Source: Oscillospiraceae bacterium (GTDB lineage: Bacteria > Bacillota > Clostridia > Oscillospirales > CAG-272). Taken from it: 64,000 nt of DNA. Shown here one piece after another: positions 5,311 through 55,577 of the stretch. The position numbers and the translations under genes were made by a program. The stretch's first letter is position 1. Every line of letters begins with the position of its first letter. Location: positions 1,050-65,049 of the forward strand of contig SVQI01000009.1 of assembly GCA_015065455.1 (NCBI GenBank), read 5' to 3'. Below the pieces are notes generated by a model. The model did not search any database and was not told where the DNA came from. It was given only the letters and a program-made list of their open reading frames with translations.

Positions 5311-5947
5311 AACGGCGGGAGCAAAATATACGCCCTACCAAATTAGGATTTGTTACCTATTTTGTGTATTCGATTGTCATTCTCGTTTCTGCCGCCACGG
5401 GATTCTTCGCTTCGCTAAAGAATGACAGCGTGGCGGCACCGTAAAGAATATCAAGCACACAGTTTTTCATAAGTGCCGTCCCCTACCAATTTAAATAATA
5501 CTATCTCAGCAAACCAGGGGGGTACCGAGGGAGGAACGCCCTCGGTCGTTTGCGGGGTAGGGGGTTACGGGGGTGGGGGAATCGAAACCCTCACCCCCGT
5601 ATGCCTTCTTTGGTTACTTTCTTGGCACGCAAGAAAGTAACATAAAAAAGAAAAGACAATATTATCTGTTTAAATTGTTTGCTTTTCTCTCCCTCCGTCA
5701 TTTTCTAACGAAAATGCCACCTCCCTCGTCAGATGGAGGTAAAAAGAGAGATTGTTTCGGGAAGCACACACTGTCAGGAGCTTCGCTCCCGAACCCACAC
5801 CAAAGGTGCTTTTTGAAAAAAGCTCCTTTGGAATCCGCAAAAACTTTATATAAAATAAGCATTAATTTTTTTATATTATTTTTTCAAAATAATATTTTAT
5901 ATGAGCACTTTTAAAAAAGTGCCCTCTTGACTCCCTCAAAACTTTTA
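5311..5947. repeat. mosaic hairpin repeat locus A (forward orientation)
   Basis: Shares long modules with loci at 12036, 22526, 30521, 40138, 49773 and 55081. Examples: gtcaggagcttcgctcccgaacccacac, ccttctttggttactttcttggcacgcaagaaagtaac, ctccctcgtcagatggag. Confidence 0.9.
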
Positions 5948-5988
5948 AAAAAATAAATTCCCAATATTATTTTAATATCGGGAATTTT
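5946..5988 (-). terminator. rho-independent terminator of murI
   Basis: On the minus strand, hairpin ttcccgatatt/aatattgggaa (one G-U pair) followed by a T-run. Confidence 0.65.
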
Positions 5989-5992
5989 TTGT

Positions 5993-6766
5993 TTATCTGT
6001 TAAGCAAAAAGTAGGTAAGATCCATTATTTCTTTTGTGCCTAATGTATTTATAATATGCAGTTCGCCTTTTTGAGTCTGGTCGTTGAGCATATCAATAAG
6101 CTCAAGCCTTCTCTTTGTTTCTCTTGCCGTACCGCTTCCTCCGTCAAATATGACTGCTTTGTGATCAAACGCCTTGCTTACCGCTTCTTTAATATGTGGA
6201 TAATGCGTACAGCCAAGAACCACCGAGTCTACTTTGAGATATCTGAAAGGAGCAAAAATTTCTTTCAAATGCGCGTCAAGCTCAGGTCCCTCAACTATAC
6301 CGCGTTCAATAAGCTTCACAAGCCCCGGGCAAGGCAAAGCTATAATATTTGCCTCGTTGTCGTATCTTCTGGCAAGCTCGTCAAACTTATCCTGCGACAA
6401 GGTAAGAGGTGTAGCCATAACTATAACAGTGGGGTGTATCTTATATAAAACAGCCGGTTTTACAGCAGGCTCAATTCCAATAATCGGAATATCAGGGTGC
6501 ATTTTTCTTAAAGTTTCAGCAGCAACACTCGTTGCCGTATTGCAGGCAATTACTATTGCTTTTGCTCCCTTTTCAAGCAATATTTCAGCATTTTTCTTTG
6601 TTAATTCCTTTATTTCCTCGGCACTTTTTGTCCCGTAAGGAGCATTGATAGAATCTCCGTAATACAAAAAATTTTCATTCGGCAATAGAGCCATAAGCTC
6701 TTTGAGAACGCTTATACCCCCGACTCCCGAGTCAAACACGGCAATAGGATCAGTTTTTTTCATCAA
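5993..6766 (-). CDS. murI: glutamate racemase
   Basis: 257 aa. Motifs FDSGVGG, IACNTATS and LGCTHYP, including both catalytic Cys motifs. Confidence 0.96.
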   Translation of the reverse strand: MMKKTDPIAVFDSGVGGISVLKELMALLPNENFLYYGDSINAPYGTKSAEEIKELTKKNAEILLEKGAKAIVIACNTATSVAAETLRKMHPDIPIIGIEPAVKPAVLYKIHPTVIVMATPLTLSQDKFDELARRYDNEANIIALPCPGLVKLIERGIVEGPELDAHLKEIFAPFRYLKVDSVVLGCTHYPHIKEAVSKAFDHKAVIFDGGSGTARETKRRLELIDMLNDQTQKGELHIINTLGTKEIMDLTYFLLNR

Positions 6767-6963
6767 AATACCACCTTTTGACTGTTTTTATCGTTTAATA
6801 ACAATCTTTAATAAACTGTCATATATTATATCACAGAAATACACTTTCGTCAATTAAAAAGATTTATTGCTCACACTAAAATATGCATTATTTTTTATTA
6901 TTATATATCATTCCCTTTAATACCATTATTATTGTTAAAATGTTACAAAATGATTTGTTACTA

Positions 6964-6992
6964 TTGACAATAAAAAAGAATAGTGCTAAAAT
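6964..6992 (+). promoter_or_regulatory. candidate promoter of the liv-type operon
   Basis: TTGACA, 17 nt, TAAAAT. This predicts a leader of about 190 nt before ATG 7192. Confidence 0.5.
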
Positions 6993-7191
6993 ATAGTATA
7001 TTTTAATAATGAAAGATATTTTTTGTGCCATGTAATTTTTCTATATATTTTTGCTTATACATGCTGTATCTTTCGTATTATTTTTGGCACAGTCGGAAAG
7101 TGCCTTTTTTGTTTTGATATACTTTTAACCGATAATTACGGTTGTTTGTATATATACTATTCTATTTTTTATTTTTCAAGGAGAAAAAACT

Positions 7192-8346
7192 ATGAAAAGA
7201 ATTCTCGCACTCATGCTTGCTGTTGTTATGTGTGCAGCTATATTAGTTGGCTGTAACAGCAAAAAAGATGACGGCAGCACATTAAGAATCGGTAGCATCG
7301 GACCTGTAACAGGTGATGCGGCAATCTACGGTCAGGCTGTTAAAAACGGTTGCCAGATCGCAGTTGACGAAATCAACGCAGCAGGCGGAATCAACGGAAT
7401 TAAGATTGAATATCAGTTCCAGGATGACGCAAACGTTTCTGAAACAGCTGTAAACGCTTATAACAAGCTTATGGACTGGGGCATGGACGTACTCGTTGGT
7501 ACAGTTACAACTAACCCCTGTATTTCTGTTTCAACAGAAATTAACAAGGACCGCGTATTTGCGCTCACACCCTCTGCATCTTCAACAGACGTAACAGCAG
7601 GAAAAGACAATATGTTCCAGCTTTGCTTTACAGACCCCAACCAGGGTACAGGTTCTGCAACATATATTTCCGCTAATATGGCTGATAAGAAGATCGCTAT
7701 CATCTACCGTAACGATGACGCTTACTCACAGGGTATCCGTAACACATTCGTTGCAGAAGCAAAGAATAAGAACCTCAACGTTGTATACGAAGGTACATTT
7801 AACAAGGACACTGCAACAGACTTTACAGTTCAGCTCACAGGTGCTAAGGCAGCAGGCGCTGACCTTATCTTCCTTCCCATCTACTACCAGCCCGCATCCG
7901 TAATTTTTGCACAGGCAGACGCTATGGGTTATGATCCTATATTCTTCGGTGTTGACGGTATGGACGGTATTCTCACAATGAAGAACTTCGACATTAAGCT
8001 TGCTGAAGGCGTAATGGTTCTCACTCCCTTCTCTGCTGACGCAGAAGATGAAAGAACACAGAACTTCGTTAAGGAATATCAGAAACGCCACGGTGAAGTT
8101 CCCAACCAGTTCGCAGCTGACGGTTATGACTGCATTTATGCAATCAAGGCAGCTTACGAAAAGGCGGGCGCAAATCAGGATATGTCTACTGAAGAACTCT
8201 GCGATGCACTTGTAAAGGCTATGAAGGAACTTTCATTCGACGGTCTTACAGGTAAAGCTATGACTTGGAACGACAAGGGCGAAGTAAACAAGATGCCCAC
8301 AGCCGTTGTAATCAAAGACGGTAAGTACGTTTCTGCAGGTAAATAA
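7192..8346 (+). CDS. branched-chain amino-acid ABC transporter substrate-binding lipoprotein (LivJ/K family)
   Basis: 384 aa. Lipobox LVGC after the signal peptide. Type I periplasmic-binding fold pattern, and first gene of the livHMGF-like operon. Confidence 0.9.
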   Translation: MKRILALMLAVVMCAAILVGCNSKKDDGSTLRIGSIGPVTGDAAIYGQAVKNGCQIAVDEINAAGGINGIKIEYQFQDDANVSETAVNAYNKLMDWGMDVLVGTVTTNPCISVSTEINKDRVFALTPSASSTDVTAGKDNMFQLCFTDPNQGTGSATYISANMADKKIAIIYRNDDAYSQGIRNTFVAEAKNKNLNVVYEGTFNKDTATDFTVQLTGAKAAGADLIFLPIYYQPASVIFAQADAMGYDPIFFGVDGMDGILTMKNFDIKLAEGVMVLTPFSADAEDERTQNFVKEYQKRHGEVPNQFAADGYDCIYAIKAAYEKAGANQDMSTEELCDALVKAMKELSFDGLTGKAMTWNDKGEVNKMPTAVVIKDGKYVSAGK

Positions 8347-8396
8347 TTTATAAATAGATTCTTGTTTTAAACTGAATATTATCGAGGTAGACTCTG

Positions 8397-9263: not shown

Positions 9264-9264
9264 G

Positions 9265-12035: not shown

Positions 12036-12284
12036 GCAAGCTCTTTGCCTTGCTCTCTCGTCAGATGGAGCTAATAAATACACGATTTTGCGCGTAAAAA
12101 AGCACAAAAAATCAGGAGCTTCGCTCCCGAACCCTTGACCGAAGGCGCTTTTTAATAAAAGCCCCTTTGGAAGCCGCAAAAACTTTATAAAGATAATCAT
12201 TTATTTTTCTATATTATTTTTTCAAGAAAATATTTTATATGTGCATTTTTGAAAAAGCTCACTCTTGACTCCCCCAAAATTTCA
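12036..12284. repeat. mosaic hairpin repeat locus B (forward orientation, 3-prime modules only)
   Basis: Contains ctcgtcagatggagc, the hairpin caggagcttcgctcccgaaccc, the AT hairpin block tatattattttttcaag and cttgactcccccaaaa, all shared with the other loci. Confidence 0.85.
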
Positions 12285-12321
12285 AATAAAATAGCAGTTA
12301 TTATAAGTTGGTTTTTATAAC

Positions 12322-12532: not shown

Positions 12533-15500
12533 TTACGCGATTGCGCTAGCTGCTGTAAAGTAATCGTACAAGGCATAAACAACATTCTTTGCTGTTTCAT
12601 AACCAGTCTGCTGTGATACTGTGTAAGCGTAGTTAAATACACTATAGTTTACAGTTACGTCGCCAACTGTTGTTACGATTGTCTTATCGAAGTCCTGAGG
12701 AAGAATGTCAGCTTCTTCAACATAGTATCCTAAATGGTTCTGTCCATCGAAGATTGTTGTGTCAGCACCGTCAGCTACTGTGAAGTAGTGTCTGATTGCA
12801 ACCTTGTCAAAGAGAACGATTGTTGAGTACTTATATGTGTAATCTGCTGATGCTCCGGGAACAACGCTTGCTCCTGTTGCATATGTTGCAAGTTCATTCT
12901 TTCTTTCAGCCTGAACAACTGTTGTGCTGTCGATCTTTCCGAAGTGCAACTGTGATAATTCACCATAGTTAAGAACTGCTTCTGCTATATCTGCATATTC
13001 AGGATTTTCTGTAGCCATCTGTTCAGCGTATGCTTCAAATGTTGTTGTGTATGTTCTTGTTTCAACACCATCTACAACAAGCTTAACGCTTACGTCAGTA
13101 GTCATTTCTGTTGCAAACAATTCAGCGCTAATCTTAACGATGTTGTTTGCATCAACCATAGCTGCAGTAACAACTGTTTCGTAAGTCTCATCACCTATTG
13201 TAAGAACATACTTAACTTTGCCTGCTGCAATAGCACTCTTTGTCAAGTCTGTTACTTTGTAATCGATGTTAAGAATTACATTGTTTTCAAGAGTACCGCT
13301 AACTACGTCAACTTCGCCGTAGGGGAATATTTCTACAACTTCATTTGCTGTAAATTCAGCATCGATCTTTGCAGGATCAATTGTTCCGTATGCATAGTAA
13401 ACAACCTTAGATGCGGGAGCTTCTGCAGATGTGTTACGTGTAGACTTGTATGTAATCTTGCCTACTGTACCACCCTGAAGGTTTATTGCCAAGTTACCGA
13501 TGCTGTCATAGTAACCTGCACCTGTAATAGCAATGATTTCGTCTACTGAACCACTCTTAACTGTGATAGAAACGTCGCCTTCAACGTATGAGTACTGTCT
13601 GTTCGCCTTAGGTGATACACCTGTTGCTTTAATCTTTTCAACATTAGCACCGTCGATAACGATTGTAGAATTACCGATAAGAGATGCACTCTTTGATGTG
13701 CTTACAGAGTGACCTGCACCTACGATATATCTCCAGCTACCTGCTTTAACTGTAATAACGGGATCTGCTTCGAGTTCTGCATCAAGACCGTTACGTGTTG
13801 TAGCAAAGATATTGGGGTATCTAGTACCTGCAACAGGAGAACCTGATGCATAGTTGTACGATGTTACGTTAACGTCATCTTCTACTGTAATGTTGTTTCC
13901 GTTAGCGTAGAATGAGAAGTTTGTAACGTACTGTTCACCTGAGTTGTTGCTGTTGTATCTGAACTCGATTGTGGTAGCATCAAATGTTGTGTCTCCACCG
14001 AGCCAGAGAGATGTTGAATCCCAAACGGAGTGATCCAAAACGAATGTTCCGCCTGTGATTTTTACTGCGCCTGTTTCAGGAAGCTTGAAGTCGCCTGCAT
14101 ACTTTCTTTCAAAAGCATCTGCGGCGTCAATAACCAATTCATCAACGATAACGATCTTACCGCCTTCAGCGCCGAGCTGTTCAAGTGCTCTGTACAAAGG
14201 ATGTGCTTTCGCAAGAGCATTGTTTGCAAATACCATCTTGCCTACGCTTACGTTTTCCTTCATCCAAGCAATAACGTCAGCGTATGCAGCATTTTCAAAC
14301 GTTGTACGTATTGTTGTACTACCGTTTGTAACTGTGTCGGTTACTGTACCGGGGCCCAAAGGACTTTCAGCAGAAGAACCGTCGCCTGTACCTGTTGAAG
14401 ATACGTAAATAACACCGGTTTCTATAATTTCATTAGCTGTAAATTCAGCTGCGATCTTTGCAAGGTCAATTGTTCCGTCTTTGTAGTAAATAACCTTAGA
14501 TGCGGGAGCTTCTGCAGATGTGTTACGTGTAGACTTGTATGTAATCTTGCCTACTGTACCACCCTGAAGGTTTATTGCCAAGTTACCGATGCTGTCATAG
14601 TAACCTGCACCTGTAATAGCAATGATTTCGTCTACTGAACCACTCTTAACTGTGATAGAAACGTCGCCTTCAACGTATGAGTACTGTCTGTTCGCCTTAG
14701 GTGATACACCTGTTGCTTTAATCTTTTCAACATTAGCACCGTCGATAACGATTGTAGAATTACCGATAAGAGATGCACTCTTTGATGTGCTTACAGAGTG
14801 ACCTGCACCTACGATATATCTCCAGCTACCTGCTTTAACTGTAATAACGGGATCTGCTTCGAGTTCTGCATCAAGACCGTTACGTGTTGTAGCAAAGATA
14901 TTGGGGTATCTAGTACCTGCAACAGGAGAACCTGATGCATAGTTGTACGATGTTACGTTAACGTCATCTTCTACTGTAATGTTGTTTCCGTTAGCGTAGA
15001 ATGAGAAGTTTGTAACGTACTGTTCACCTGAGTTGTTGCTGTTGTATCTGAACTCGATTGTGGTAGCATCAAATGTTGTGTCTCCACCGAGCCAGAGAGA
15101 TGTTGAATCCCAAACGGAGTGATCCAAAACGAATGTTCCACCTGTGATTGTTACTGCGCCTGTTTCAGGAAGCTTGAAGTCGCCTGCATACTTTCTTTCA
15201 AAAGCATCTGCTGCGTCGATAACCAATTCATCAACGATAACAATCCTACCGCCTTCAGCGCCGAGCTGTTCAAGCGCTCTGTACAAAGGATGTGCTTTCG
15301 CAAGAGCATTGTTTGCAAATACCATCTTGCCCACGCTTACGTTTTCCTTCATCCAAGCAATAACATCAGCGTATGCAGCATTTTCAAACGTTGTACGTGT
15401 TGTTGTACTACCGTTTGTAACTGTGTCGGTTACTGTACCGGGGCCCAAAGGACTCTGAGCAGAGGAACCGTCGCCTGTACCTGTTGATGATACGTAAATA

Positions 15501-15598
15501 ACATTTGTTTCATTAGCAGAAGCAAACATTACTGTACATGACACGATTACTGCAACGAGCAATAATGCAGGTACAAGAAATTTCATGAATTTTCTCAT
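12533..15598 (-). CDS. secreted repeat-containing surface protein, predicted beta-helix-like, with an internal 363-aa tandem duplication
   Basis: 1021 aa. Signal peptide MRKFMKFLVPALLLVAVIVSCTVMFASA. Two near-identical 363-aa modules plus a C-terminal domain of about 260 aa shared with 15989..18034. Confidence 0.85.
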   Translation of the reverse strand: MRKFMKFLVPALLLVAVIVSCTVMFASANETNVIYVSSTGTGDGSSAQSPLGPGTVTDTVTNGSTTTRTTFENAAYADVIAWMKENVSVGKMVFANNALAKAHPLYRALEQLGAEGGRIVIVDELVIDAADAFERKYAGDFKLPETGAVTITGGTFVLDHSVWDSTSLWLGGDTTFDATTIEFRYNSNNSGEQYVTNFSFYANGNNITVEDDVNVTSYNYASGSPVAGTRYPNIFATTRNGLDAELEADPVITVKAGSWRYIVGAGHSVSTSKSASLIGNSTIVIDGANVEKIKATGVSPKANRQYSYVEGDVSITVKSGSVDEIIAITGAGYYDSIGNLAINLQGGTVGKITYKSTRNTSAEAPASKVIYYKDGTIDLAKIAAEFTANEIIETGVIYVSSTGTGDGSSAESPLGPGTVTDTVTNGSTTIRTTFENAAYADVIAWMKENVSVGKMVFANNALAKAHPLYRALEQLGAEGGKIVIVDELVIDAADAFERKYAGDFKLPETGAVKITGGTFVLDHSVWDSTSLWLGGDTTFDATTIEFRYNSNNSGEQYVTNFSFYANGNNITVEDDVNVTSYNYASGSPVAGTRYPNIFATTRNGLDAELEADPVITVKAGSWRYIVGAGHSVSTSKSASLIGNSTIVIDGANVEKIKATGVSPKANRQYSYVEGDVSITVKSGSVDEIIAITGAGYYDSIGNLAINLQGGTVGKITYKSTRNTSAEAPASKVVYYAYGTIDPAKIDAEFTANEVVEIFPYGEVDVVSGTLENNVILNIDYKVTDLTKSAIAAGKVKYVLTIGDETYETVVTAAMVDANNIVKISAELFATEMTTDVSVKLVVDGVETRTYTTTFEAYAEQMATENPEYADIAEAVLNYGELSQLHFGKIDSTTVVQAERKNELATYATGASVVPGASADYTYKYSTIVLFDKVAIRHYFTVADGADTTIFDGQNHLGYYVEEADILPQDFDKTIVTTVGDVTVNYSVFNYAYTVSQQTGYETAKNVVYALYDYFTAASAIA
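13325..15502. repeat. in-frame tandem duplication, 2 x 1,089 bp
   Basis: Units are about 13325..14413 and 14414..15502. Long runs of DNA are identical at an offset of 1089 (for example 13403 vs 14492). The mirrored antisense track ORFs 14030..14398 and 15119..15487 also differ by exactly 1089. Confidence 0.95.
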
Positions 15599-15672
15599 AA
15601 ATTTTTCTCCTTATTTATATATTTTTATTTTGTGTATCCAAATATAGAAACACGTATATACGATACATATAT

Positions 15673-15701
15673 ATAATATCACACTGATACCTAATTGTCA
15701 A
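15673..15701 (-). promoter_or_regulatory. candidate promoter of 12533..15598
   Basis: On the minus strand: TTGACA, 17 nt, TG-a-TATTAT. Confidence 0.55.
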
Positions 15702-15780
15702 CAGCAAAATTAACATATTATTTCACATTTTTTTAATAGTTTTTCACAAACTAAGAAATATAGAACAAAAAGTTAAACTA

Positions 15781-15815
15781 AAAAAACACCGCAGCTTATT
15801 TAAATCTGTGGTGTT
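15781..15815 (-). terminator. rho-independent terminator after micro-ORF 2
   Basis: Hairpin caccgcag...ctgtggtg flanked by an A-run and a T-run, so it may act in both directions. Confidence 0.7.
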
Positions 15816-15839
15816 TTATTGTTTTGTTTTTTACCTTAT

Positions 15840-15950
15840 TATACAACATCTATTCCCATGGGCGGCATTTCAGGATCGCTCATTGTGATAATGTCTTTTT
15901 CTTCGAAGTTAATTACTTCTACTTTAGGTTCTTCAAAACTCATCTTCATC
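15840..15950 (-). CDS. conserved 36-aa micro-ORF downstream of the 681-aa surface protein (not in the ORF track)
   Basis: AGGAGG sits 10 nt before the ATG. Translation MKMSFEEPKVEVINFEEKDIITMSDPEMPPMGIDVV. Paralog of 12383..12493. Confidence 0.6.
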
Positions 15951-15988
15951 TCTTCTACTCCTCCTATCGTATTATCTATAACAACTTC

Positions 15989-18034
15989 TTACACAAGCGC
16001 GTCGGCTGCTTTATAATAATCATACAAAGCATAAACGATGTTCTTTGTAGTTGTAAACTTTTCCGATGTCTGTTGAGACACTAAATAAGCATAATTCATT
16101 ACGCTGTATTTTACTGTACATCCGTCAACCTCAACGGTCTGTGCATCAGCATATTCCTGAGGAAGAATATCGCTGATTTCGATATAATATCCTTTATCGT
16201 TATAACCGTCAAACATCGACGTATCCGCACCTTCTACTATACCGAAGTAATGTCTGATCGCGATCTTATCAAAAAGAACAAGTGACGAATAATTATACGT
16301 GTACTGTGTTGAAGCTCCACTGACAGATGCGCCTGTTTCGTACGCTGTAAGCTCGGTTTTTCTTTCAGGTTGATTTACCGTTGTGCTATTGATCGTTCCA
16401 AAGTGGAACTGTGACATTTGTCCATATTTAAGCACTGCCGCCGCTACTTCCGCATACTCAGGATTATCAAGTGCCATCTGCTCTGCGTACGCTTCAAACG
16501 TTGTTGTGTAAGTATCACATTCAACTTCACCAACATACAACGTACCGCTGACTTCAGCAGTCATTTCCGTACCGTAAAGAGTTGCCGGGAATCTGACGAC
16601 GTTATTTGCATCAATCATTTCTGCAGTAATTATATATTCCTCTTGAACTCTGTTACCAACCGCAAATGCATATTTAACAGTCTTTCCTGCCGCAATAGCA
16701 TCCTTTGTCGCCTGTGTAACTTTAAAATCAAGGTTAAGCTCAACGTTATTATTAAGTGTGCCGCTGACCATATCAACTTCACCGTAGATATTCTTTACGT
16801 TTACAGCTGTGAAGTTTCCACTGATCTCGGGAGCATTTTGAGCTTTTGTTACGTAGCACGTAACAACCGAAGACGTAGGTTCATATACACTTCCGTTTGT
16901 TGTGTTCTTGTAAACAATTTCACCGATCGTTGCAGTTTCGTGTGTGTTTATTGTCAACGTGCCGACAATACCTGCAGACGTTACTCCGTAAATTGAGCCG
17001 ATTGTACCGCCCGTAACGTTTACAGTTGCATTACCGTTAAGAATACTAAAATGTATAGGGTTCAGTTTTGAGCCTTGGTATGCAGAGGTTTTACCCGAGC
17101 ACCACAATTTTTCAATCGTACCGCCTGTAACGTTAATCGTTGCATTACCTCTGAGGTCTGCATCATAGGATGAACTACTAGAATATATACTATGTCCTGC
17201 CGCAGATACGTCAGTCCAATGTCCCGACTTAATGGTAATAATCGGATTTCCTGTTATTGCTGTATATTTAATTGACGTAGCATAGATAGAGGGGTATTCA
17301 TTACCCTCGACGCGATTTCCGGAAACGTAATCAAACGACGTTACGTCAACACCCTCGCCTATTGTAAGGTTGTGTCCGCCTGCAAGGAACGAAAAGTGAT
17401 GCGTCATAGTAGAACGGCTATAATTTGCATTATTACTAATGTGGATACCTGAATTATATCTGTTTTCTATGCCGATATTCTGAATTGTCGTATCACCGCT
17501 GAACTGAATATGAGTAGAGTTGTAAACAGTATGGTCCAAAATAAGCTTAGAATTTGCATTGTAACCTTCGATTACGATAGGTCCGGCAGAAGGAGTAATC
17601 ATCTTGCCTTCATATCCAATCTCGAAAGTAACAGCCGCATCAAGAGCGAGCTCGCCAACAACAACCACCTTACCACCTTCAGCTCCAAGCCGTTGAATAG
17701 CTTTATACAAAGGATGAGCTTTTGTGAGCGCGTTGTTTGCAAATTTAACAGTCGTAATCTTTCTTATATCATCACTCTTCAACCAGGTGATAACACTTTC
17801 GTACGATGCGTTGGAAAAACTCTTTGTTTTACTGGAATTGCTGGAATTCTTGTACGAAACAGAATCCGTCACCGTGCCAGGTCCCATAGGACTCTGAGCC
17901 GAAGAACCGTCGCCCGTACCGCTTTGCGATATGTAAATAACGTCAGTTTCAGCAGAAGCAAACATTACTGTGCATGACACAATCACTGCAATCAGCACCA
18001 AAGAAGGAATAAGAAACTTTATGAATTTTTTCAT
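15989..18034 (-). CDS. secreted surface protein, single-module paralog of 12533..15598
   Basis: 681 aa. Near-identical signal peptide (MKKFIKFLIPSLVLIAVIVSCTVMFASA). Shares the GDGSSAQSP motif, the HPLY.A...LGAEGG motif and a conserved C-terminal domain (TTTFEAYAEQMA..NPEYA, YALYDY). Confidence 0.85.
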   Translation of the reverse strand: MKKFIKFLIPSLVLIAVIVSCTVMFASAETDVIYISQSGTGDGSSAQSPMGPGTVTDSVSYKNSSNSSKTKSFSNASYESVITWLKSDDIRKITTVKFANNALTKAHPLYKAIQRLGAEGGKVVVVGELALDAAVTFEIGYEGKMITPSAGPIVIEGYNANSKLILDHTVYNSTHIQFSGDTTIQNIGIENRYNSGIHISNNANYSRSTMTHHFSFLAGGHNLTIGEGVDVTSFDYVSGNRVEGNEYPSIYATSIKYTAITGNPIITIKSGHWTDVSAAGHSIYSSSSSYDADLRGNATINVTGGTIEKLWCSGKTSAYQGSKLNPIHFSILNGNATVNVTGGTIGSIYGVTSAGIVGTLTINTHETATIGEIVYKNTTNGSVYEPTSSVVTCYVTKAQNAPEISGNFTAVNVKNIYGEVDMVSGTLNNNVELNLDFKVTQATKDAIAAGKTVKYAFAVGNRVQEEYIITAEMIDANNVVRFPATLYGTEMTAEVSGTLYVGEVECDTYTTTFEAYAEQMALDNPEYAEVAAAVLKYGQMSQFHFGTINSTTVNQPERKTELTAYETGASVSGASTQYTYNYSSLVLFDKIAIRHYFGIVEGADTSMFDGYNDKGYYIEISDILPQEYADAQTVEVDGCTVKYSVMNYAYLVSQQTSEKFTTTKNIVYALYDYYKAADALV

Positions 18035-18258: not shown

Positions 18259-20052
18259 TTATTTAAGGTTTGCTTCAAGAGTTGCAAGCTCAGCTTTGAG
18301 TTCTGCAGGAACTGTATCACCGATCTTCGCATAGAATTCCTTGATTCCACCGATTTCTTCGCTCCAAACAGCCTTATCAACAGTAAGAAGTTCTTTTACA
18401 ACGTCAATGCTGATATCAAGACCTTCAATGTTAATATCTTCAGCCTTAGGAACGTAACCGATTGCAGTTTCAACAGCGTCTACCTTACCTTCGCAACGAG
18501 CGAGGATCCAAAGAAGTACACGCATATTGTCGCCAAATCCGGGCCAAATAAAGTTGCCTTCGTCGTCTGTACGGAACCAGTTAACGTTGAAGATAAGGGG
18601 CTTGTTTGTAATCTTTGTACCCATTTCGATCCAGTGCTTGAAGTAATCACCCATATTGTATCCTGTAAAGGGAAGCATAGCCATGGGGTCACGACGAACT
18701 ACGCCAACAGCACCTGCTGCAGCTGCAGTTGTTTCGGAAGCCATAATCGAACCAACGAATACACCGTTATTCCAGTTACGAGACTGGTATACCAACGGAG
18801 CAGTCTTTGCACGTCTGCCGCCGAATACGATCGCAGAAATCGGAACGCCTGCGGGATTGTTAAATTCAGAGGAAATGCAGGGGCAGTTGATTGCCATAGA
18901 AGTAAATCTTGAGTTGGGGTGTGCACCGCAAGTAGATTTATCCTTCTTGTCAAACTTGGTGTAATCCCACTTGTTGCCCTTCCAGTCAATTGCATTTGCA
19001 GGAGGATTCTTGTCGAGACCTTCCCACCATACTGTATTATCGTCAAGGTTGTGAACAACGTTTGTGAAAATAGTATCGCGCATTGTTGTCTTAAGAGCGT
19101 TGGGGTTAGATTTATCATTTGTACCGGGAGCAACACCGAAGAATCCATTTTCGGGGTTTACTGCCCAGAGTCTGCCGTCAGCACCAACACGGAGCCAAGC
19201 AATATCGTCACCTACACACCATACTTTGTAACCCTTTTCACGATATATTTCGGGGGGAATAAGCATAGCAAGGTTTGTCTTACCGCAAGCAGAGGGGAAC
19301 GCTGCAGAAATATACTTAATTTCGCCGTTAGGATATTCAATGCCGAGAATAAGCATATGCTCAGCCATCCAGCCTTCTTTTCTTCCGAGGTAAGACGCAA
19401 TACGGAGTGCGAAGCACTTCTTACCGAGAAGAACGTTACCGCCGTAACCTGAGTTGATAGACCAGATCGTGTTATCCTGCGGGAAGTGAACAATGTATCT
19501 GTTCTCTTCGTCAAGATCAGCTCTCGCATGAAGACCCTTAATGAAACCTGCATAATCGTCAGGAAGAGCTTCAAGAACTGTCTTGCCTACTCTTGTCATT
19601 ATAATCATATTGAGTACAACGTAGATAGAGTCTGTAAGCTCAATACCGATCTTTGCAAAGTCAGAACCTACAACGCCCATTGAATAAGGGATAACGTACA
19701 TAGTTCTGCCCTTGTAAGAACCGCGATAAAGCTTAGTAAGTTTTTCATACATTTCAGCGGGAGCCATCCAGTTGTTGAGAGGACCTGCTTCTTCTTTTGT
19801 TTCTGTACAAATAAATGTACGGTTTTCAACACGTGCAACGTCGTTTATTGCAGTGCGATGCAAATAGCAACCGGGGAGCTTATCCTGATTGAGCTTGATC
19901 ATTTCGGAACTAGCGCAAGCTTCTTCACGAAGTGCCTCTTTCTGTTCTTCTGAACCGTCGATCCATACGATCTTGTCAGGGCAAGTAAGCTCTGCCATTT
20001 CGTTAATCCATTGGTTTACATACTTGTTGGTTGTCATTTGGTTTGCCTCCAA
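18259..20052 (-). CDS. phosphoenolpyruvate carboxykinase (GTP)
   Basis: 597 aa. GTP-type PEPCK motifs: FPSACGKTN (kinase-1a), DDIAW, and NWF..D..G.F.WPGFG.N.RVL.W. Confidence 0.96.
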   Translation of the reverse strand: MEANQMTTNKYVNQWINEMAELTCPDKIVWIDGSEEQKEALREEACASSEMIKLNQDKLPGCYLHRTAINDVARVENRTFICTETKEEAGPLNNWMAPAEMYEKLTKLYRGSYKGRTMYVIPYSMGVVGSDFAKIGIELTDSIYVVLNMIIMTRVGKTVLEALPDDYAGFIKGLHARADLDEENRYIVHFPQDNTIWSINSGYGGNVLLGKKCFALRIASYLGRKEGWMAEHMLILGIEYPNGEIKYISAAFPSACGKTNLAMLIPPEIYREKGYKVWCVGDDIAWLRVGADGRLWAVNPENGFFGVAPGTNDKSNPNALKTTMRDTIFTNVVHNLDDNTVWWEGLDKNPPANAIDWKGNKWDYTKFDKKDKSTCGAHPNSRFTSMAINCPCISSEFNNPAGVPISAIVFGGRRAKTAPLVYQSRNWNNGVFVGSIMASETTAAAAGAVGVVRRDPMAMLPFTGYNMGDYFKHWIEMGTKITNKPLIFNVNWFRTDDEGNFIWPGFGDNMRVLLWILARCEGKVDAVETAIGYVPKAEDINIEGLDISIDVVKELLTVDKAVWSEEIGGIKEFYAKIGDTVPAELKAELATLEANLK

Positions 20053-22451: not shown

Positions 22452-22457
22452 CACAAA

Positions 22458-22492
22458 ACGGGCGGACAAACGAATCCGCCCGTATATTTTTA
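22458..22492 (+). terminator. rho-independent terminator of queH
   Basis: Hairpin acgggcgga-caaacga-atccgcccgt followed by a T-rich tail. Confidence 0.75.
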
Positions 22493-22525
22493 GAATTATA
22501 ACAAACCTCTCCTCTTGTGTACATT

Positions 22526-23210
22526 GGAAATGAATCACACCGTGATGTCATTCACTCCGTCGCCACCGCTTCGCTACCTCGTCAGATGAGGACTTATAAT
22601 AACACTGGGGCGAAAACGAACTCATCCGTCACACCGCGTTTTATATTTGTAAAAAAATGAAGTTTGTTAGCGGTGTGCCACCTTCTCTCACCAGAGAAGG
22701 CACAGAGTATAGCCTTTGTCTTTTTGTTTTTATTTTGTTGGTCTTATAATTTTATAAAATCATTTTATTTATTACATCGAATTGCACCAATTTTGCACCT
22801 TCTCTGGTGAGAGAAGGTGGCGTGCCGCCAATATATTTAAGTATATTTTGTCATATAACGCGGCGCGACGGATGAGTTCGTCTATCCTCCCAAAAATACA
22901 CTAACTTAAACCTCCATCTGAGGAGGGAGGTGGCTCGGCAATAGGTAAATATAGAATATTTTTATTCTTTGTTGCCGAGACGGAGGGAGAGATATATGTT
23001 AAATATCTGATTGCAATATTGTTTGTTTAAACCGTTTGTTCTTCTCTCCCTCAGTCTCGCAGTCGCTCGCCAGCTCCCTCCTCAGATGGAGCCGAGAAAT
23101 ACGCGCTTCGCGCGTAAAAAGTACATACTGTCAGCTTCTTCGCTCCCGAACCCACACAAAAGGAGCTTTTGGAAAAAAGCTCCTTTGGAATCCGCAAAAA
23201 CTTTATAAAA
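22526..23210. repeat. mosaic hairpin repeat locus C (mixed orientations)
   Basis: Contains a palindrome related to aatgacatcac-ggt-gtgatgtcatt, an inverted duplication of about 264 bp (22617..22880), one reverse copy of the core (ctccatctgaggagggag) and one forward copy with the full 3-prime block. Confidence 0.9.
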
Positions 23211-23226
23211 CTACCCTTATTACATT

Positions 23227-30474: not shown

Positions 30475-30520
30475 CATTTTAAAAAAGCGATCAAGAAAAA
30501 TAATTGTTATAAACGGGACG

Positions 30521-31245
30521 TCGAAGAAGGGATTCCCCGAAACGCACGAAGTAAGTTTTTGGGAGTTCTCGTGTGCGCCGTCCCCTACCAAGTTAGGATT
30601 TATTATTTATTTAAATAATTTGTTCTTCTCTCCCTCAGTCAACTTCGTTGACAGCTCCCTCGTCAGATGGAGCTAAAAAGTTAGACTTTTTCAAAAAAAC
30701 GGCGGGAGCAAAATATACGCCCTAAAAATTTAGGATTTATTAACTCGCAATTCTTCTCAAACGGAGCGGCGGTGACATCGCCCCCTACAAAACAGGCAAT
30801 ACCGTCTCAGCAAACGATGGGGGTGCAAAGGGGGTAATCCCCCTTTGTCGTTTGCGGGGTAGGGGTTTATAGGGGCGGGGGAATCGAAACCCCTGCCCCT
30901 ATATGCCTTCTTTGGTTACTTTCTTGGCACGCAAGAAAGTAACGTAAAAAAAGAAAAAGACAATATTATCTGTTTAAAACGTTTATCTTTCTCTCCCTCA
31001 GTCATTTTCTAACGAAAATGCCAGCTCCCTCCTCAGATGGAGCCGAGAAATACGCGCTTCGCGCGTAAAAAAGCACAAAATGTCAGGAGCTTCGCTCCCG
31101 AACCCACACAAGAGGTGCACTTTTGAAAAAGTGCCCTCTTGACTCCCTCAAAACTTTTAATATAATTTTTTATATTATTTTTTAAAATATTATTTTATAT
31201 GTGCACTTTTGAAAAAGTGCCCTCTTGACTCCCCCAAAACTTTAC
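30521..31245. repeat. mosaic hairpin repeat locus D (forward orientation, most complete copy)
   Basis: Contains two copies of the framed core (30620..30672 and 30980..31042), the GC-rich three-hairpin module (30808..30943) and two copies of the gtgcacttttgaaaaagtgccctcttgactccc block. Confidence 0.92.
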
Positions 31246-31269
31246 CATAAAAAAATTTATAGACGCAAA

Positions 31270-40137: not shown

Positions 40138-40790
40138 ACTCATTCGTCGCGCCGCTTCGCTACCTTCTCAGATGGAGCTAAAAAGTTAGATTATTTCAAA
40201 AAACGGCGGAAGCAAGATATACGCCCCACAAGCTAAACAATACCATCTCTGCAAACACGGGGAAACCGAAGGGGGTGTCCCCCTCGGTCGTTTGGTGGTT
40301 GGGGGTCGAGGGGGAGGAGGAATCGAAACCTCCGTCCCCTTGTGCCTTCTTTGGTTACTTTCTTGGCACGCAAGAAAGTAACGTAAAAAAGAAAAGACAA
40401 TATTATCTAATTAAAACGTTAATTCTTCTCTCCCTCAGTCATTTTCTAACGAAAATGCCAGCGTCTACTGCGGTTCGGTCACGGCTCGGCTCTACCAGTG
40501 AACCCCCAAGCTTTACTTCGTGCAGCTCGGGGAACCCCTAACCAGTCCACCGGACTTTTATTCACTCCCTCGCCGCCGCTTCGCTACCTCGTCAGATGGA
40601 GCCGAGAATTACGCGCTTCGCGCGTAAAAAAGGCACAGAATGTCAGGAGCTTTGCTCCCAAACCCACACAAAAGGAGCGCTTTTAAAAAAGCGCCCTCTT
40701 GACTCCCCCAAAACCTTTAGTAAAAAATTTTTAAATGCTCTTTTTGAAAAACACTCCTTTGGAAACCGCAAAAAATTTAATAAAACAACA
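40138..40790. repeat. mosaic hairpin repeat locus E (forward orientation, with nested extra modules)
   Basis: Module order matches locus D, but the framed core is split by about 150 bp of extra sequence (about 40452..40584). The GC-rich module lies at 40249..40382. Confidence 0.9.
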
Positions 40791-49731: not shown

Positions 49732-49738
49732 TAATACA

Positions 49739-49772
49739 ACACGGGTGGATAAAAAATCCACCCGTGTTTTTT
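49739..49772 (+). terminator. rho-independent terminator of rnr
   Basis: Hairpin acacgggtggat-aaaaa-atccacccgtgt followed by TTTTTT. Confidence 0.9.
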
Positions 49773-50150
49773 AAGTTTTTGCGGAGTCCAGAGGGGCTTG
49801 CTCCCGCCGTTTTTTAGAAGAACTAACTTTTTTAGCTCCATCTGATGAGGTAGCGAAGCGGCGGCGAGGGAGTGAATGACATCACGGTGTGATGTCATTT
49901 CCGAGCCGTGACCGAACCGCAGTAGACGCTGTCAACGAAGTTGACTGAGGGAGAGAAGAAATGGAGTAACACAACAATAAGTAATTAAAGCTGTGAAAAA
50001 TTGAACACCCTCTCTCCTTTCTCCTTGGCTAAAAATCGGATTATTCATTATATCAAATTCATAAGAAGAATAATCCGATTTTCTTAACGCCAATTCCTCC
50101 TTCCTCGTCAGAGGAAGGCGAGGTTGTAATGCACGCTTCGCTACGTTACA
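49773..50150. repeat. mosaic hairpin repeat locus F (reverse orientation)
   Basis: Reverse complement of modules seen in loci D and E: ctccatctgatgaggtagcgaagcggcggcgagggagtgaat, ccgagccgtgaccgaaccgcagtagacg, gtcaacgaagttgactgagggagagaagaa. It also has a 13-bp-stem hairpin at about 50034..50088. Confidence 0.88.
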
Positions 50151-50210: not shown

Positions 50211-50249
50211 AATAAGAAAACTGCCAAAAACTTTGGCAGTTTTCTTATT
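50211..50249 (-). terminator. rho-independent terminator of the ABC exporter operon
   Basis: 18-bp-stem hairpin aataagaaaactgccaaa/tttggcagttttcttatt immediately after the stop codon. Confidence 0.85.
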
Positions 50250-52091: not shown

Positions 52092-53893
52092 AATTGCCCC
52101 TCGCTTTCAACATACTTCTCTGCCTGCATATGCCACATATCAGCATACTTACCATTTAAAGCAAGGAGCTGGTCGTGTGTGCCTTTTTCTATTACCTTTC
52201 CGTTTTCCATCATATAAACCATGTCTGCCATTCGCGCCGCGGACAGACGGTGTGATATGTATATGGCAATCTTACCCTCGCTCACCTCAAACATATTTTT
52301 ATACATTTTATCTTCAGCAATAGGGTCAAGAGCACTTGAAGGCTCGTCAAGTATAATTATAGGCGGGTCCATAGCAAACAGCCTTGCAAACGCAAGCTTT
52401 TGCGCTTCTCCCCCCGACAAAACTTCGCCGTGTGAATCAAATTCCTTTGTAAGTATTGAATCAATGCCTTTTTCGGTGTTTGCTATTCTATCGTAAACGT
52501 CGCTTCTTTTTAATGAATCCTCAACGATACGTCTGTCTTCGTCACACGTTACCTTGCGCAGAAGTACGTTTTCCGTAACGGGTAATGAAAACATTTTATA
52601 ATCCTGAAACACCGTACCGAAAGAGCTTCTGTATGCGGATAAACGATAATCCTTTATATTTTTTCCGTCAAGCAAAATTTCCCCATCATCTACGTCATAC
52701 ATACGGAGCAACAGCTTTACAAGGGTAGTTTTTCCTGCGCCGTTGTGCCCCACAATAGCAATCTTTTCGCCCTTTCTGGCACATATATTAACGTTATCAA
52801 CAACCTTCTTGTTGTTATACGAAAATGATACGTTTTTAAACTCAAGAACTTCGGGGGAATTTGGAATAAGACCGTTTTCATTTTCCGGTATTTTTATTTC
52901 ATACTCTATAAAACGACGGTAATTATCAATATATTTTGAGTTTTCGTCCATTCTTATAAGCGTATGACTTGCCCAAGCAAAGCTGCCCGAAAGATTTGTT
53001 ATTGAATTTATTACCACAAAACAGTCGCCTAACGGTAAAACAAATTTTACAAGCGCCAAAAATGACGCTAACAAAATTGAACCGCAGTATACTACTATCT
53101 CGCTTATAAATTGAGCAAAACATTCAAACCACATAAGCTTATAGCCGTACGTTTTTGCTATATTGTCAAGCTCCTTTATGTTTTCTTTCATCTGAGAGAG
53201 CATAACTCTGTACATATTAGTAAGGCGCATTTCTTTTGAATAGTCTGATAAATAAAAACTGCGTCTTACATAATTTGCACGTCTTGACGTTTCCATTCTC
53301 TTCATATTTCTTTCAAATGAAATATTATTCTTCTTTTTCCCGACAAGCAAATTATAAGCAAACGGAATTAGAGCCATAATTATAAATACGGGATGAATGG
53401 TTACAATAAGCGTAACCATTGAAACAACGTTGACAATAGACCATATTCCGTGGTCAAGATGCCACATTATATATTGAGCCTGTTTTGACTGTTCTATTGC
53501 CTTAGAATAGGCATCGTAGAAATCAGGATCGTCAAAACAAGCAAGCTCAACACTTGCCGCTTTTTTCAGCATCTCTTTTTGCAGAAAAGACTCTATCTGC
53601 GCACTCTTTTTAAGATGATATTGTTCGGCAATCTCATCAAAAATCATATATGCAACCGATATAATAAACATAGTTACTATATAAGTCAAAACGTCTTTCA
53701 AGCCTCCACCCGACTGAATGGTATTGAGAACGTATTTGTACATATACGTAAAAGAGAAAAAATTGCAAAGACTTCCCGCAATTGATCTGAAAATCTCAAT
53801 TCCTACGTATGTTTTTGAGAAATTGGCAATCAGCTTAAGCATAAACCAGTTATTACTGATCGTTTTTCTCAGATTTTTCTTTTTGTCTGTCAT
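52088..53893 (-). CDS. ABC exporter, fused permease/ATP-binding subunit (heterodimer partner)
   Basis: 601 aa. Walker A GHNGAGKTT, signature LSGGEAQKLAFAR, Walker B IIILDEPSSALD. Overlaps the downstream gene by 4 nt. Confidence 0.92.
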   Translation of the reverse strand: MTDKKKNLRKTISNNWFMLKLIANFSKTYVGIEIFRSIAGSLCNFFSFTYMYKYVLNTIQSGGGLKDVLTYIVTMFIISVAYMIFDEIAEQYHLKKSAQIESFLQKEMLKKAASVELACFDDPDFYDAYSKAIEQSKQAQYIMWHLDHGIWSIVNVVSMVTLIVTIHPVFIIMALIPFAYNLLVGKKKNNISFERNMKRMETSRRANYVRRSFYLSDYSKEMRLTNMYRVMLSQMKENIKELDNIAKTYGYKLMWFECFAQFISEIVVYCGSILLASFLALVKFVLPLGDCFVVINSITNLSGSFAWASHTLIRMDENSKYIDNYRRFIEYEIKIPENENGLIPNSPEVLEFKNVSFSYNNKKVVDNVNICARKGEKIAIVGHNGAGKTTLVKLLLRMYDVDDGEILLDGKNIKDYRLSAYRSSFGTVFQDYKMFSLPVTENVLLRKVTCDEDRRIVEDSLKRSDVYDRIANTEKGIDSILTKEFDSHGEVLSGGEAQKLAFARLFAMDPPIIILDEPSSALDPIAEDKMYKNMFEVSEGKIAIYISHRLSAARMADMVYMMENGKVIEKGTHDQLLALNGKYADMWHMQAEKYVESEGQL

Positions 53894-53894
53894 A

Positions 53895-54509
53895 TTACCT
53901 CTTAGATGATATCTTCTTCATAACTGCATCGGTATCGTACACGTTTATGTTTACAGGAATAATAATTTCCTCTTCACCGGTAATTGAAAGATAATTACGT
54001 TTTACCTCACCTATTGCAGTTGTATACGTTTTTTCCAAAATCTTATGTTCGCACCCGACGTTTAGTTTGTACTCGGATACTGTAAAACTTTCTTCAAAAA
54101 GATCAATAGTATATTTTTTTATACTAAAAGTCTCTTTTTTAAACACAAATGCCGTTACACAGTAGAACGCTGTTCTAACTTTTTTATCCTTACCCTTTTT
54201 TATATGTCCACTCTTACCGATTATGTACTCCTTAAGGGTATGCTCGGTTTCTTCAATATTGTTTATTAACATGATTCTTTTAACTTCACTGTCAAAATCA
54301 TCTTCTGTTACTCTTGAAGAGTGAGTAAACACCCATCCGCATCCGCCGATTATCAAAAACGGAAATCCGAAAAAGCCAACTCCAAGGTATAAAAATATCC
54401 ACAGTGCAACCAATACCGCGCCTACTCCCGTCATTACCATAAATACGGTTTCAATGCCCTTTGTGTCTTTTTGTTCAAAATAAGCTTTAATTGTTTTTCT
54501 TTCTTTCAT
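53895..54509 (-). CDS. hypothetical membrane protein (2 TM helices plus a soluble domain), first gene of the exporter operon
   Basis: 204 aa. No recognisable motif. Its stop lies 1 nt before the ABC gene start. Confidence 0.6.
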   Translation of the reverse strand: MKERKTIKAYFEQKDTKGIETVFMVMTGVGAVLVALWIFLYLGVGFFGFPFLIIGGCGWVFTHSSRVTEDDFDSEVKRIMLINNIEETEHTLKEYIIGKSGHIKKGKDKKVRTAFYCVTAFVFKKETFSIKKYTIDLFEESFTVSEYKLNVGCEHKILEKTYTTAIGEVKRNYLSITGEEEIIIPVNINVYDTDAVMKKISSKR

Positions 54510-54863
54510 AATTGTTACTCCTGTCTTTAAATGCTGTTTAATTACTTAATAATGCTATGGTTTTCGGAGTTACTCACCTGCCTTTCTTAAGTTAATACTT
54601 TAGTTTGCCGAATCTAAGTCGTATACTTACCTTAAAAGGTATCAATATTCGCCCAGAAGCAATAATTGAAAGTGTAGCATACAACGTCAAAAAAATCAAT
54701 AAACTATTAGTTGAATAGTTTAAACAAACAGTAAATTGTATAAAAACTTTTACGACCGCATTTCAGCAAGCAAAAGAATAAGTCTTATTTTATACTACTT
54801 TATCGCATTTGTCAAGAATTTATCGTATATTATTATATAATTTGATTAAGGAGGGATAAAAAA

Positions 54864-55010
54864 ATGAAACCTTTAAAGGAAAAAATAAGCATAACATTAG
54901 ATAGTGATATTCTTGATGAAGTTCGCAAGAAAGCAGACGAGGACGAGCGTTCACTGTCGCAATTTATTAATCTCATTTTGAAGCAATATCTTATTACTAT
55001 AAAAAACTAA
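54864..55010 (+). CDS. ribbon-helix-helix (CopG/Arc-like) small DNA-binding protein, 48 aa (not in the ORF track)
   Basis: GGAGGG RBS. Translation MKPLKEKISITLDSDILDEVRKKADEDERSLSQFINLILKQYLITIKN fits an RHH beta-strand plus two helices (RS.S.FI....L). Confidence 0.65.
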   Translation: MKPLKEKISITLDSDILDEVRKKADEDERSLSQFINLILKQYLITIKN

Positions 55011-55014
55011 AAAC

Positions 55015-55045
55015 GAGCTGTATAAAATACAGCTCATCTTTTTTT
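55015..55045 (+). terminator. rho-independent terminator
   Basis: Hairpin gagctgta-taaaa-tacagctc followed by a T-run. Confidence 0.8.
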
Positions 55046-55080
55046 GCAAAAAAATCGTAAACAACCATTAGCACTACAAA

Positions 55081-55577
55081 GTGATGTCATTTCCGAAGTG
55101 TGCCCGAACCGCAGTAAAACGTCCCCTACCAAATTAGGAAATATTGTATATTTAAATTATTTGTTCTTCTCTCCCTCAGTCAAAAACAAGCTTTTGACAG
55201 CTCCCTCGTCAGATAGAACTAAAAGATACATTTTTAAAAAAACGGGGCGTCAATGAAGGGGTTCCCCCGTATGCCTTCTTTGGTTACTTTCTTGGCATGC
55301 AAGAAAGTAACGTAAAAAAAAAGACATTATTATTTAGATAAATAATACATCTTAAAAAAAGAAAAAGCTATCGCTTTTTTTAAGGGAGCACAAAATGTCA
55401 GGAGCTTCGCTCCCGAATATATGACAAAAGAGGCTTTTTGAAAAAAGCCCCTCTTGACTCCCCAAATACTTTAAACAAATAAACATTTATTATTTCTCTA
55501 TATTATTTTTTAAAAAATAATATTTACTATATGCGCTTTTTGAAAAAACTCCTTTGGAAACCGCAAAAACTTTTAAA
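55081..55577. repeat. mosaic hairpin repeat locus G (mainly forward, first module reversed)
   Basis: Contains gtgatgtcatttccgaag..cccgaaccgcagta (reverse relative to loci E and F), a framed core with the cassette gtcaaaa-acaagc-ttttgac, the gttactttcttggcatgcaagaaagtaac hairpin, caggagcttcgctcccgaa and the AT hairpin block. Confidence 0.88.

Follow-up and report, generated by a model that had tools for sequence, protein, structure and literature searches.

Seven intergenic spacers in a 64,000-nt stretch of contig SVQI01000009.1 from an Oscillospiraceae bacterium (hereafter the window) are filled with arrays of short hairpin-forming modules, and the question raised by these arrays is what kind of element they are and how they came to occupy the same type of site again and again. 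The organism belongs to the uncultured gut or rumen Clostridia, a group known mostly from metagenome-assembled genomes (MAGs), in which, to our knowledge, dense extragenic repeat systems such as those well studied in Proteobacteria, Neisseria and pneumococci have hardly been described. We consider it likely, though far from certain, that the arrays represent a lineage-restricted family of nested, non-autonomous repeats operating at the DNA level, analogous to REP/BIME, BOX and NIME elements, and that they probably spread strand-specifically by way of single-strand hairpins. A first-pass annotation of the window had recognised the seven loci and read them as BOX- or BIME-like mosaics, a reading that held up; the placement at gene junctions, the order and polarity of the modules, the lineage range, the cross-species conservation combined with turnover and the coupling to the replication strand are additions to it.

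A family of palindromic modules assembled in a common order

The seven non-coding loci, here called arrays A to G, were found where they had been annotated, apart from the start of array C, which is probably at about 22455 and not at 22526. Compared by BLAST with the window, they match only themselves, covering 3,910 nt or 6.1% of its length (about 6% had been estimated), and a repeat search returned families of four to nine copies for each module listed previously. For instance, the 29-nt palindrome GTTACTTTCTT-GGCAYGC-AAGAAAGTAAC of module m4 occurs four times in a pattern search of the window, with 0 occurrences expected. The arrays are 250-750 bp long and as hairpin-dense as first described: their minimum free energy z-scores range from -4 to -19 on both strands versus -2 to +2 in four control segments, and hairpins with at least seven Watson-Crick pairs reach 14.9 per kb, compared with 4.2 per kb outside the arrays. 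The open reading frames (ORFs) inside them are indeed artefacts, because the frames differ between copies; the 113-aa ORF at 5573-5914, for example, falls in two or three different frames on the other copies.

Array polarity was measured as the BLAST score to the other arrays in each orientation, and every array collects about 85-100% of its score in one orientation (array A scores 1698 bits forward and 0 reverse, array F 502 bits reverse and 84 forward). Arrays A, B, D, E and G are forward, as proposed earlier; array F, initially called reversed, is mostly so but has a forward right third, and array C is mostly forward rather than simply mixed. The common order of the modules is m1, GC block, m4, m5, m6, m7, m8, m9 and a second m8 (described in Table 1). 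The modules are therefore shared between the loci, as had been claimed, but they are not freely combined, since the arrays are polar and follow this order. Differences between arrays consist of truncations, mostly at the left end, of the variant present at each position, and of nested inserts. The small hairpin hpX lies at the same bulge of hairpin P3 in at least six copies, within the long m5 of array E and, in opposite orientation, within an m1-type hairpin of array D; the inserts of the long m5 form are all at one site. In nearly all m1 copies the hairpin is followed by CTAC.

The array E copy of hpX carries a perfect 6-nt direct repeat, ACCAGT, on both sides, the sole hint of a target duplication in the family. 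The unfilled hpX site in contig L049 reads AAAAGT, and the filled copy in L022 has ATACGT and ATCAGT.

Repeats of this kind break assemblies, many of the matches in the sister-lineage MAG described below lie at contig ends, and some contigs change neighbour genes inside arrays; an assembly artefact or chimera confined to SVQI01000009.1 could produce such signs. However, the array sequences are 100% identical in independent Joint Genome Institute (JGI) contigs, and the same modules are present in ENA assemblies and in the NCBI MAG 'Oscillospiraceae bacterium SIG632'. Because independent assemblies carry identical arrays, this explanation is refuted and its probability is negligible. The family is neither confined to one contig nor absent elsewhere, and, as far as the searches reached, nothing marked it as a fragment of a known insertion sequence, prophage, intron or Rfam family.

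Arrays fill the long spacers between convergent genes

By gene content the window is an ordinary piece of chromosome of a spore-forming Clostridia bacterium, including parC, prfA, proS, pckA, ksgA, queH, ftsW, lacZ, tex, spoIIGA-sigE and spoIIR as well as genes for RNase J, SecG and RNase R; no transposase, recombinase, integrase or phage genes were found in the window gene set. All seven arrays (7/7) lie at junctions between convergent protein-coding genes, in the spacer delimited by the flanking genes' own terminators, whereas none of the approximately 45 co-directional or divergent spacers holds one. The window has nine convergent junctions, unusually many for 64 kb, because its coding genes are split almost evenly between the strands; the two empty ones have short spacers (Table 1).

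The placement rule was tested on another 8 kb to the right of the window: the first long-spacer convergent junction there (L049 15694-16390) holds a complete forward array. With this junction included, 8 of 10 convergent junctions carry an array, among them every junction with a spacer of more than 100 nt. In SIG632, for which the gene calls are crude, most arrays are likewise at convergent junctions, with a few exceptions between co-directional genes; several of the short convergent spacers hold no array.

Array orientation is coupled to the replication strand

The GC skew at four-fold degenerate sites was used to separate coding-strand bias from strand bias. The + strand of the window has a replication-type skew of -0.146 ± 0.048, and seven of the eight arrays of the window lineage read forward on it. 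An independent test was provided by 23 SIG632 loci, each oriented by its own array: their pooled skew is -0.170 ± 0.036, with 17 of 23 individually negative, and a null obtained by random flips gives 0 ± 0.055, only 4 of 5000 permutations being as extreme. The arrays are therefore oriented relative to replication, since the array-oriented skew is negative in both lineages. On the usual reading of GC skew, the reverse strand of the arrays is the G-rich strand, that is, the lagging-strand template, which is transiently single-stranded at the fork. On this reverse strand m1 reads 5'-GTAG and then the GC hairpin, which is the arrangement recognised by REP-associated tyrosine transposases (RAYTs). 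Strand coupling of the same kind is known for IS200/IS605 elements.

Coding DNA is nearly equal on the two strands of the window (about 30 kb versus 25 kb), yet the strand skew at four-fold sites is clear.

The stems are maintained, probably as DNA palindromes

The modules are palindromes maintained by compensatory change. Among 14 distinct copies of hpX, 99.3% of the stem cells are paired, a value reached in 0 of 500 shuffles, and compensatory double changes are found at three pairs (AAAC/GTTT, AACC/GGTT and AGCT/AGCT). Hairpins P2 and P3 and module m8 exist as discrete self-complementary alternative variants, which are reshuffled between copies. In contrast, about 50 consecutive columns at m4, flanks included, are invariant in 19 copies from two lineages, next to a GC block with a column identity of 56-72%. 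The mismatches in 133 distinct hairpins (17 G.T, 20 A.C and 52 others) show no wobble bias on either strand, and the same modules are used in both orientations. Together with the lack of an Rfam match, these two features indicate DNA palindromes rather than RNA structures.

The family was found in two sister lineages and turns over at individual sites

Among the GTDB species representatives the m4 palindrome was found only in SIG632, with 25 matches on 24 contig stretches. The first-pass figure of hundreds of copies genome-wide is an extrapolation, supported only by one array per 9-11 kb (94 kb, two lineages) and by the 25 matches of a single module in this fragmentary MAG. Between the window lineage and the SIG632/L031 lineage, ParC is 97% identical in amino-acid sequence; the four-fold sites of the two are only 43-50% identical, so that neutral sites are near saturation. 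An ordinary divergent spacer has 74% identity of aligned columns between the two, compared with 63% for the orthologous array A and 44% for the orthologous array B. On the other hand, 269 cross-lineage module matches of at least 50 nt were found at non-orthologous loci, with identities of up to 98.6% and with m4 identical throughout; overall the modules are 90-98% identical between the lineages, well above the four-fold sites. Since the content of orthologous arrays differs while the modules match, the sequences are kept as a population and the individual sites turn over. This indicates that copies are continually replaced from other copies, by copy-and-paste or gene conversion, and are not conserved in place.

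Relatives with 90%, 86% and 68% ParC identity have no arrays in 22 kb each, and the same spacer holds ordinary terminators. The closest of them, L028 (ParC 90%), has only two isolated related modules. It carries one m2-like and one m5-like copy, and a hairpin similar to the core of the 266-nt element of array C (2716-2777 and 19730-19870); older or ancestral forms of the family may be represented here.

Four contigs from other samples (L045, L046, L048 and L003), 99.7-99.98% identical to the window, switch neighbour genes inside arrays D, D, E and F. The switch points fall at module borders (window positions 30691, 30969, 40602 and about 49934-49960), and the genes beyond them are DUF559-pfkB-gyrB twice, uvrA, and tRNAs with rnfC. 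These switches are either real strain rearrangements or chimeras of short-read assembly. Because arrays break short-read assemblies and neighbours differ inside them, the quality of MAGs, strain comparison and possibly genome rearrangement are affected by the family.

How the arrays may have arisen

Under the explanation that we favour, spread of non-autonomous repeats through single-strand hairpins, small modules would nest into one another at fixed sites and so build polar composite arrays in convergent spacers running from terminator to terminator; the fixed module order would follow from this site-specific nesting. An enzyme whose gene lies outside the window would catalyse the spread in trans; the most plausible candidate is an HUH/Y1-type transposase (IS200/IS605 or RAYT-like) that recognises hairpins in single-stranded DNA and works on the lagging-strand template. 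Group 1 RAYTs have been reported in Clostridia (PMC5581495). Selection against polar or terminator effects in operons and promoters may then have limited the surviving copies to convergent junctions. The use of some outer modules as gene terminators and the neighbour-gene differences between strain contigs would be consequences of the repeats and not the reason for them.

Several observations weigh against this explanation. No consistent target-site duplication or terminal inverted repeat was found at module ends (for hpX, only the repeat in array E), which fits hairpin-guided single-strand transposition or recombination and proves neither. No clean pair of filled and empty sites was obtained between near-identical strains. 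A phmmer search for Y1 transposases with IS200 and IS608 TnpA queries found none in 403 kb, about a tenth of a genome, and is a weak negative. GTAG precedes P3 in some variants but is missing from the common GAAAGG-GTGGGG variant, and the modules stand in direct arrangement, not in the inverted pairs of REPINs. The strand coupling could result from selection rather than from the insertion mechanism, and a host function would account equally well or better for an invariant m4 and for convergent junctions that are nearly all filled.

Host function is indeed the main rival, although we judge it rather unlikely. The arrays would here be junction elements serving the host, as platforms for protein binding and/or two-way barriers where converging transcription meets, with mobility being secondary; by analogy with gyrase and IHF at the BIMEs of E. 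coli, m4 would be a candidate site for a protein that binds as a dimer, for instance a topoisomerase or nucleoid-associated protein. Beyond the filling of all long convergent spacers and the invariant m4 region, this account draws on the conservation of modules far above that of four-fold sites, on the fixed orientation relative to replication, on the m1 hairpin that acts as the queH terminator, and on terminator-like hairpins that lean to the + strand on the left (11 versus 7) and to the - strand on the right (18 versus 10). This last trend is weak, however, and each flanking gene has its own terminator outside the array. Moreover, close relatives manage the same gene pairs with ordinary terminators, the content of locus B is wholly different between orthologs, and SIG632 has both empty short convergent spacers and arrays between co-directional genes. 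A further view, which strikes us as unlikely, is a long-lived, vertically inherited partnership of repeat and enzyme of the REPIN-RAYT type with a multi-module grammar, in which m4 and the GTAG-footed hairpins would be protein recognition sites, co-opted to manage nearly every convergent junction in a replication-oriented manner (termination, supercoiling or fork passage).

It is also improbable, in our opinion, that transposition plays no part and that old arrays diversify only through gene conversion and recombination, homologous or illegitimate, between copies, in the manner of the mosaic elements of Neisseria, possibly with a site-specific tyrosine recombinase acting at m4. The reshuffled P2/P3 variants, the non-orthologous variants at orthologous loci, the neighbour switches at module borders, the lack of target-site duplications and terminal repeats, and the geometry of m4, which is that of a recombinase core site, would all fit. 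Yet recombination alone cannot seed arrays at new junctions and leaves unexplained both the strand-coupled orientation and the absence of arrays from close relatives; no recombinase is found near any array, a chromosome with over 100 active recombinase sites in direct repeat would be expected to be unstable, and the switches may be assembly chimeras. Structured RNAs, whether multi-hairpin stabilisers of 3' untranslated regions, small RNAs or ribozyme-like modules with stems kept for RNA folding, appear very improbable. The folds are very stable and the stems change in a compensatory way, a promoter-like TTGACT-16-TATAAT is present at 31139-31166 in array D, and loops resembling UUCG are common (of the 13 occurrences of GCTTCGC in arrays, 12 are on one strand). 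Against this stand the lack of wobble asymmetry, the use of the same module in both orientations and the location of the arrays behind terminators on both sides. In addition, the promoter-like TTGAC forms part of the stem of m8 and most copies have no -10 element, no Rfam family matches even at E < 5, ribozymes included, and a hammerhead-like CUGANGA lacks the rest of the ribozyme core.

Comparison with known extragenic repeats

The family behaves like the mosaic extragenic repeats of the REP/BIME, BOX and NIME type and is not a demonstrated member of any of them. With REP/BIME elements it shares GC-rich imperfect palindromes repeated in extragenic DNA (m1, P2 and P3 qualify), in part a conserved tetranucleotide at the hairpin foot (here CTAC after nearly all m1 hairpins, which on the other strand is GTAG followed by the hairpin, but GTAG before P3 in some variants and not in others), mosaic arrays with defined linkers downstream of genes and often between convergent ones, a copy number likely in the hundreds, and persistence across related species with local replacement. 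It differs from them by its Clostridia host, by the lack of sequence similarity, and by arrays of the length given above that comprise at least nine module types in fixed order, instead of one to three REP types. Furthermore, the modules are in direct orientation, whereas REPs alternate or form inverted pairs, there are no regular REPIN doublets, and no RAYT gene was found in the window or in the 403 kb searched.

Like BOX, the family resides in Firmicutes, is intergenic and strongly structured, lacks a known mobilising enzyme and has a modular, polar composition with variable internal modules (boxA, repeated boxB, boxC); this comparison concerns the A-B(n)-C logic and not the sequence. However, it has many more module types, which are nested, and nearly all of its arrays are at convergent junctions. 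NIMEs (RS blocks between dRS3 repeats) and Correia elements are likewise intergenic mosaics of different blocks, variable in content between strains and linked to rearrangements, but no common short inverted repeat comparable to the 20-bp dRS3 separates the modules here, and most of them have neither the terminal inverted repeats nor the TA duplication of Correia elements. In the very small nested SDR repeats of cyanobacteria and in ERIC sequences with insertions, small hairpin units are found inserted, in either orientation, at one and the same place within other repeats. The phylum and, presumably, the sequences of those elements are different, and the nesting here gives a reproducible array grammar. 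Finally, the IS200/IS605-derived PATEs resemble the family in being hairpin-based, in lacking a target duplication and in having an orientation tied to the lagging-strand template, but no IS200/IS605 ends, TnpA or TnpB were identified here and the IS605-related and omega-RNA families of Rfam are unmatched.

What sets the family apart, in an uncultured lineage of Clostridia, is how many module types it has, how densely it occurs, that its grammar is fixed and that its placement is oriented to replication. The near-saturation of junctions, the orientation fixed to replication and the conservation of modules beyond neutral sites make it a tractable case for the persistence, and the co-option by the host, of small non-coding replicators. 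If a cognate hairpin-specific enzyme exists, the REP/RAYT paradigm would be extended to Firmicutes; if the co-opted REPIN-RAYT-type partnership were true, the arrays would form a repeat system that organises the chromosome, of a sort still undescribed in this phylum.

Individual arrays

The arrays, their modules and the empty convergent junctions are listed in Table 1. Array A of L005/L031 has the same module order as its ortholog in the window with different module variants, while the L031 spacer orthologous to array B contains entirely other modules. The m1-type hairpin at the start of array C is the queH terminator, and its sequence, GGGCGGACAAACGAATCCGCCC, recurs unchanged in m1 copies of L031 and L017. 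The 266-nt element within array C, further copies of which are present in L003 and in array B of L031, had no visible target-site duplication at its flanks.

Table 1. Positions, strands and composition of the arrays, modules and empty convergent junctions of the window
Feature	Position	Strand	Composition	Neighbours or other copies
Array A	5311-5950	+	m1, m2, GC block, m4, m5, m7, m8a, m9, m8b	between parC-like gene and 49-aa gene (+) and racemase gene (-)
Array B	12036-12290	+	right half only: 3' part of m5, m6-like, m7, m8a, m9, m8b	between ABC ATPase gene (+) and large surface-protein gene (-)
Array C	22455-23214	+ (mostly)	m1-type hairpin (22456-22485), 266-nt inverted-repeat element, reversed m5, forward m5-m6-m7-m8a run	
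Sub-element of array C, MITE-like	22616-22881	no strand	29-nt outer and 50-nt inner inverted repeats, AT-rich centre, 266 nt	
Array D (longest)	30514-31252	+	m1b (with reversed hpX), m5, m1, m1'', GC block, m4, m5, m6, m7, m8b, m9, m8b	between ftsW/rodA (+) and lacZ (-)
Array E	40138-40790	+	3' part of m5, m1, GC block, m4, long m5 (with forward hpX), m6, m7, m8b, m8a	between malK-like gene (+) and degT-family gene (-)
Array F	49767-50150	-	left two thirds reversed (m8, m1 fragment, long m5); right third forward (m5-like, m6-like)	between RNase R gene (+) and ABC transporter gene (-)
Array G	55081-55578	+	m1 tail, m5, m1-like hairpin fused to m4, m7, m8b, m9, m8a	between 48-aa ribbon-helix-helix gene (+) and cell-wall hydrolase gene (-)
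m1			GC hairpin, then CTAC-AAATTAGGATTT	
GC block	30797-30914	+	three hairpins, P1, P2 and P3	5497-5612, 40238-40353
m4	5613-5641	+	11-7-11 palindrome (perfect 11-bp inverted repeat, 7-nt spacer) with A-rich flank	30915-30943, 40354-40382, 55283-55311, all +
m5			TCTCCCTCAGTC, hairpin, CTCCCTCGTCAGATGGAGC	
m6			TACGCGC-TTC-GCGCGTA	
m7			GTCAGGAGCTTCGCTCCCGAACCC	
m8			14-15 bp hairpin, then A(A/C)TCC(G/C)CAAAAACTTT	
m9			AT hairpin	
hpX	40497-40545	+	CCCC-A-NNNN / NNNN-C-GGGG around loop TTACTTCGTGC	opposite orientation: 30528-30575
Empty convergent junction	63797-63894		98-nt spacer with one bidirectional terminator inside	
Empty convergent junction	44066/44068		spacer of about 1 nt	sigE/spoIIR

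Searches and rejected identities

That the sequences match no nameable family was confirmed, no Rfam match being obtained for the arrays at gathering or E-value thresholds. With the Rfam covariance models only a tRNA-Thr exceeded its gathering score in the window and nothing credible appeared at E < 5; ARAGORN also reported this tRNA-Thr alone. Array D had no blastn match in 72,556 plasmids and 50,697 phages, three module patterns had none in viral contigs, and a scan of metagenome collections with the m1 tail gave six chance matches only. A literature search for repeats of this sort in Clostridia or Ruminococcaceae yielded nothing specific.

A number of candidate identities were considered and rejected. 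The minus strand of m5 carries the CUGANGA motif, but neither GAAA nor the stem II/III layout of a hammerhead, and no ribozyme family of Rfam matches even at E < 5. The loop of P3, GAATCGAAA, resembles a reversed T-arm, but it has 8 nt, a common variant departs from the T-loop consensus, and there is no match by ARAGORN or to the Rfam tRNA model. The outward promoter suspected in m8 was discarded, its TTGAC lying within the 14-15 bp stem. A sigma-54 site, attC core sites and a dif-like site in m4 were unsupported by inspection, and the 11-7-11 geometry is only a lead. An integron attC array was dismissed, also by inspection, as the loci are dispersed, the module ends lack core sites (RYYYAAC ... 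GTTRRRY) and there is no integrase. For a classical DDE-type MITE (miniature inverted-repeat transposable element), terminal inverted repeats are present only in the 266-nt element, which has no flanking duplication, and hpX lacks a consistent one. GCTTCGC (GCGAAGC), 13 of whose 18 occurrences are in arrays, is not diagnostic of DNA mini-hairpins because ordinary terminators of related species carry the same loops. The idea of a terminator battery was given up in view of the weak left/right strand trend.

Other genes in the window and in related contigs

Two adjacent large genes at 12533-18034 (-), encoding 1021 and 681 aa without a Pfam match, contain long repeats, both internal and common to the two (300-nt units, 96% identical, 1089 nt apart), and are replaced in the sister lineage by a single gene of 712 aa; the pair looks like fast-evolving, repeat-containing surface proteins. 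At 54510-55010 a lone gene for a 48-aa ribbon-helix-helix (CopG-like) protein follows a 350-nt AT-rich spacer, with no partner toxin gene between it and array G. In the related contigs L028 (4313-4465) and L029 (18591-18938), genes of the 23S_rRNA_IVP family (four-helix bundle) lie in repeat-rich regions next to tRNA-like repeats; none was seen in the window. At 62146-62906 (+) a 60-aa ORF precedes a gene with a Zeta_toxin domain (L049 gene list), a possible toxin-antitoxin pair of the epsilon/zeta type amid housekeeping genes. Directly 3' of parC, a 49-aa gene (5044-5193, +) encodes a lysine-rich peptide with one membrane helix and no Pfam family, and its position is kept in the sister lineage and in the relatives with 90% and 86% ParC identity.

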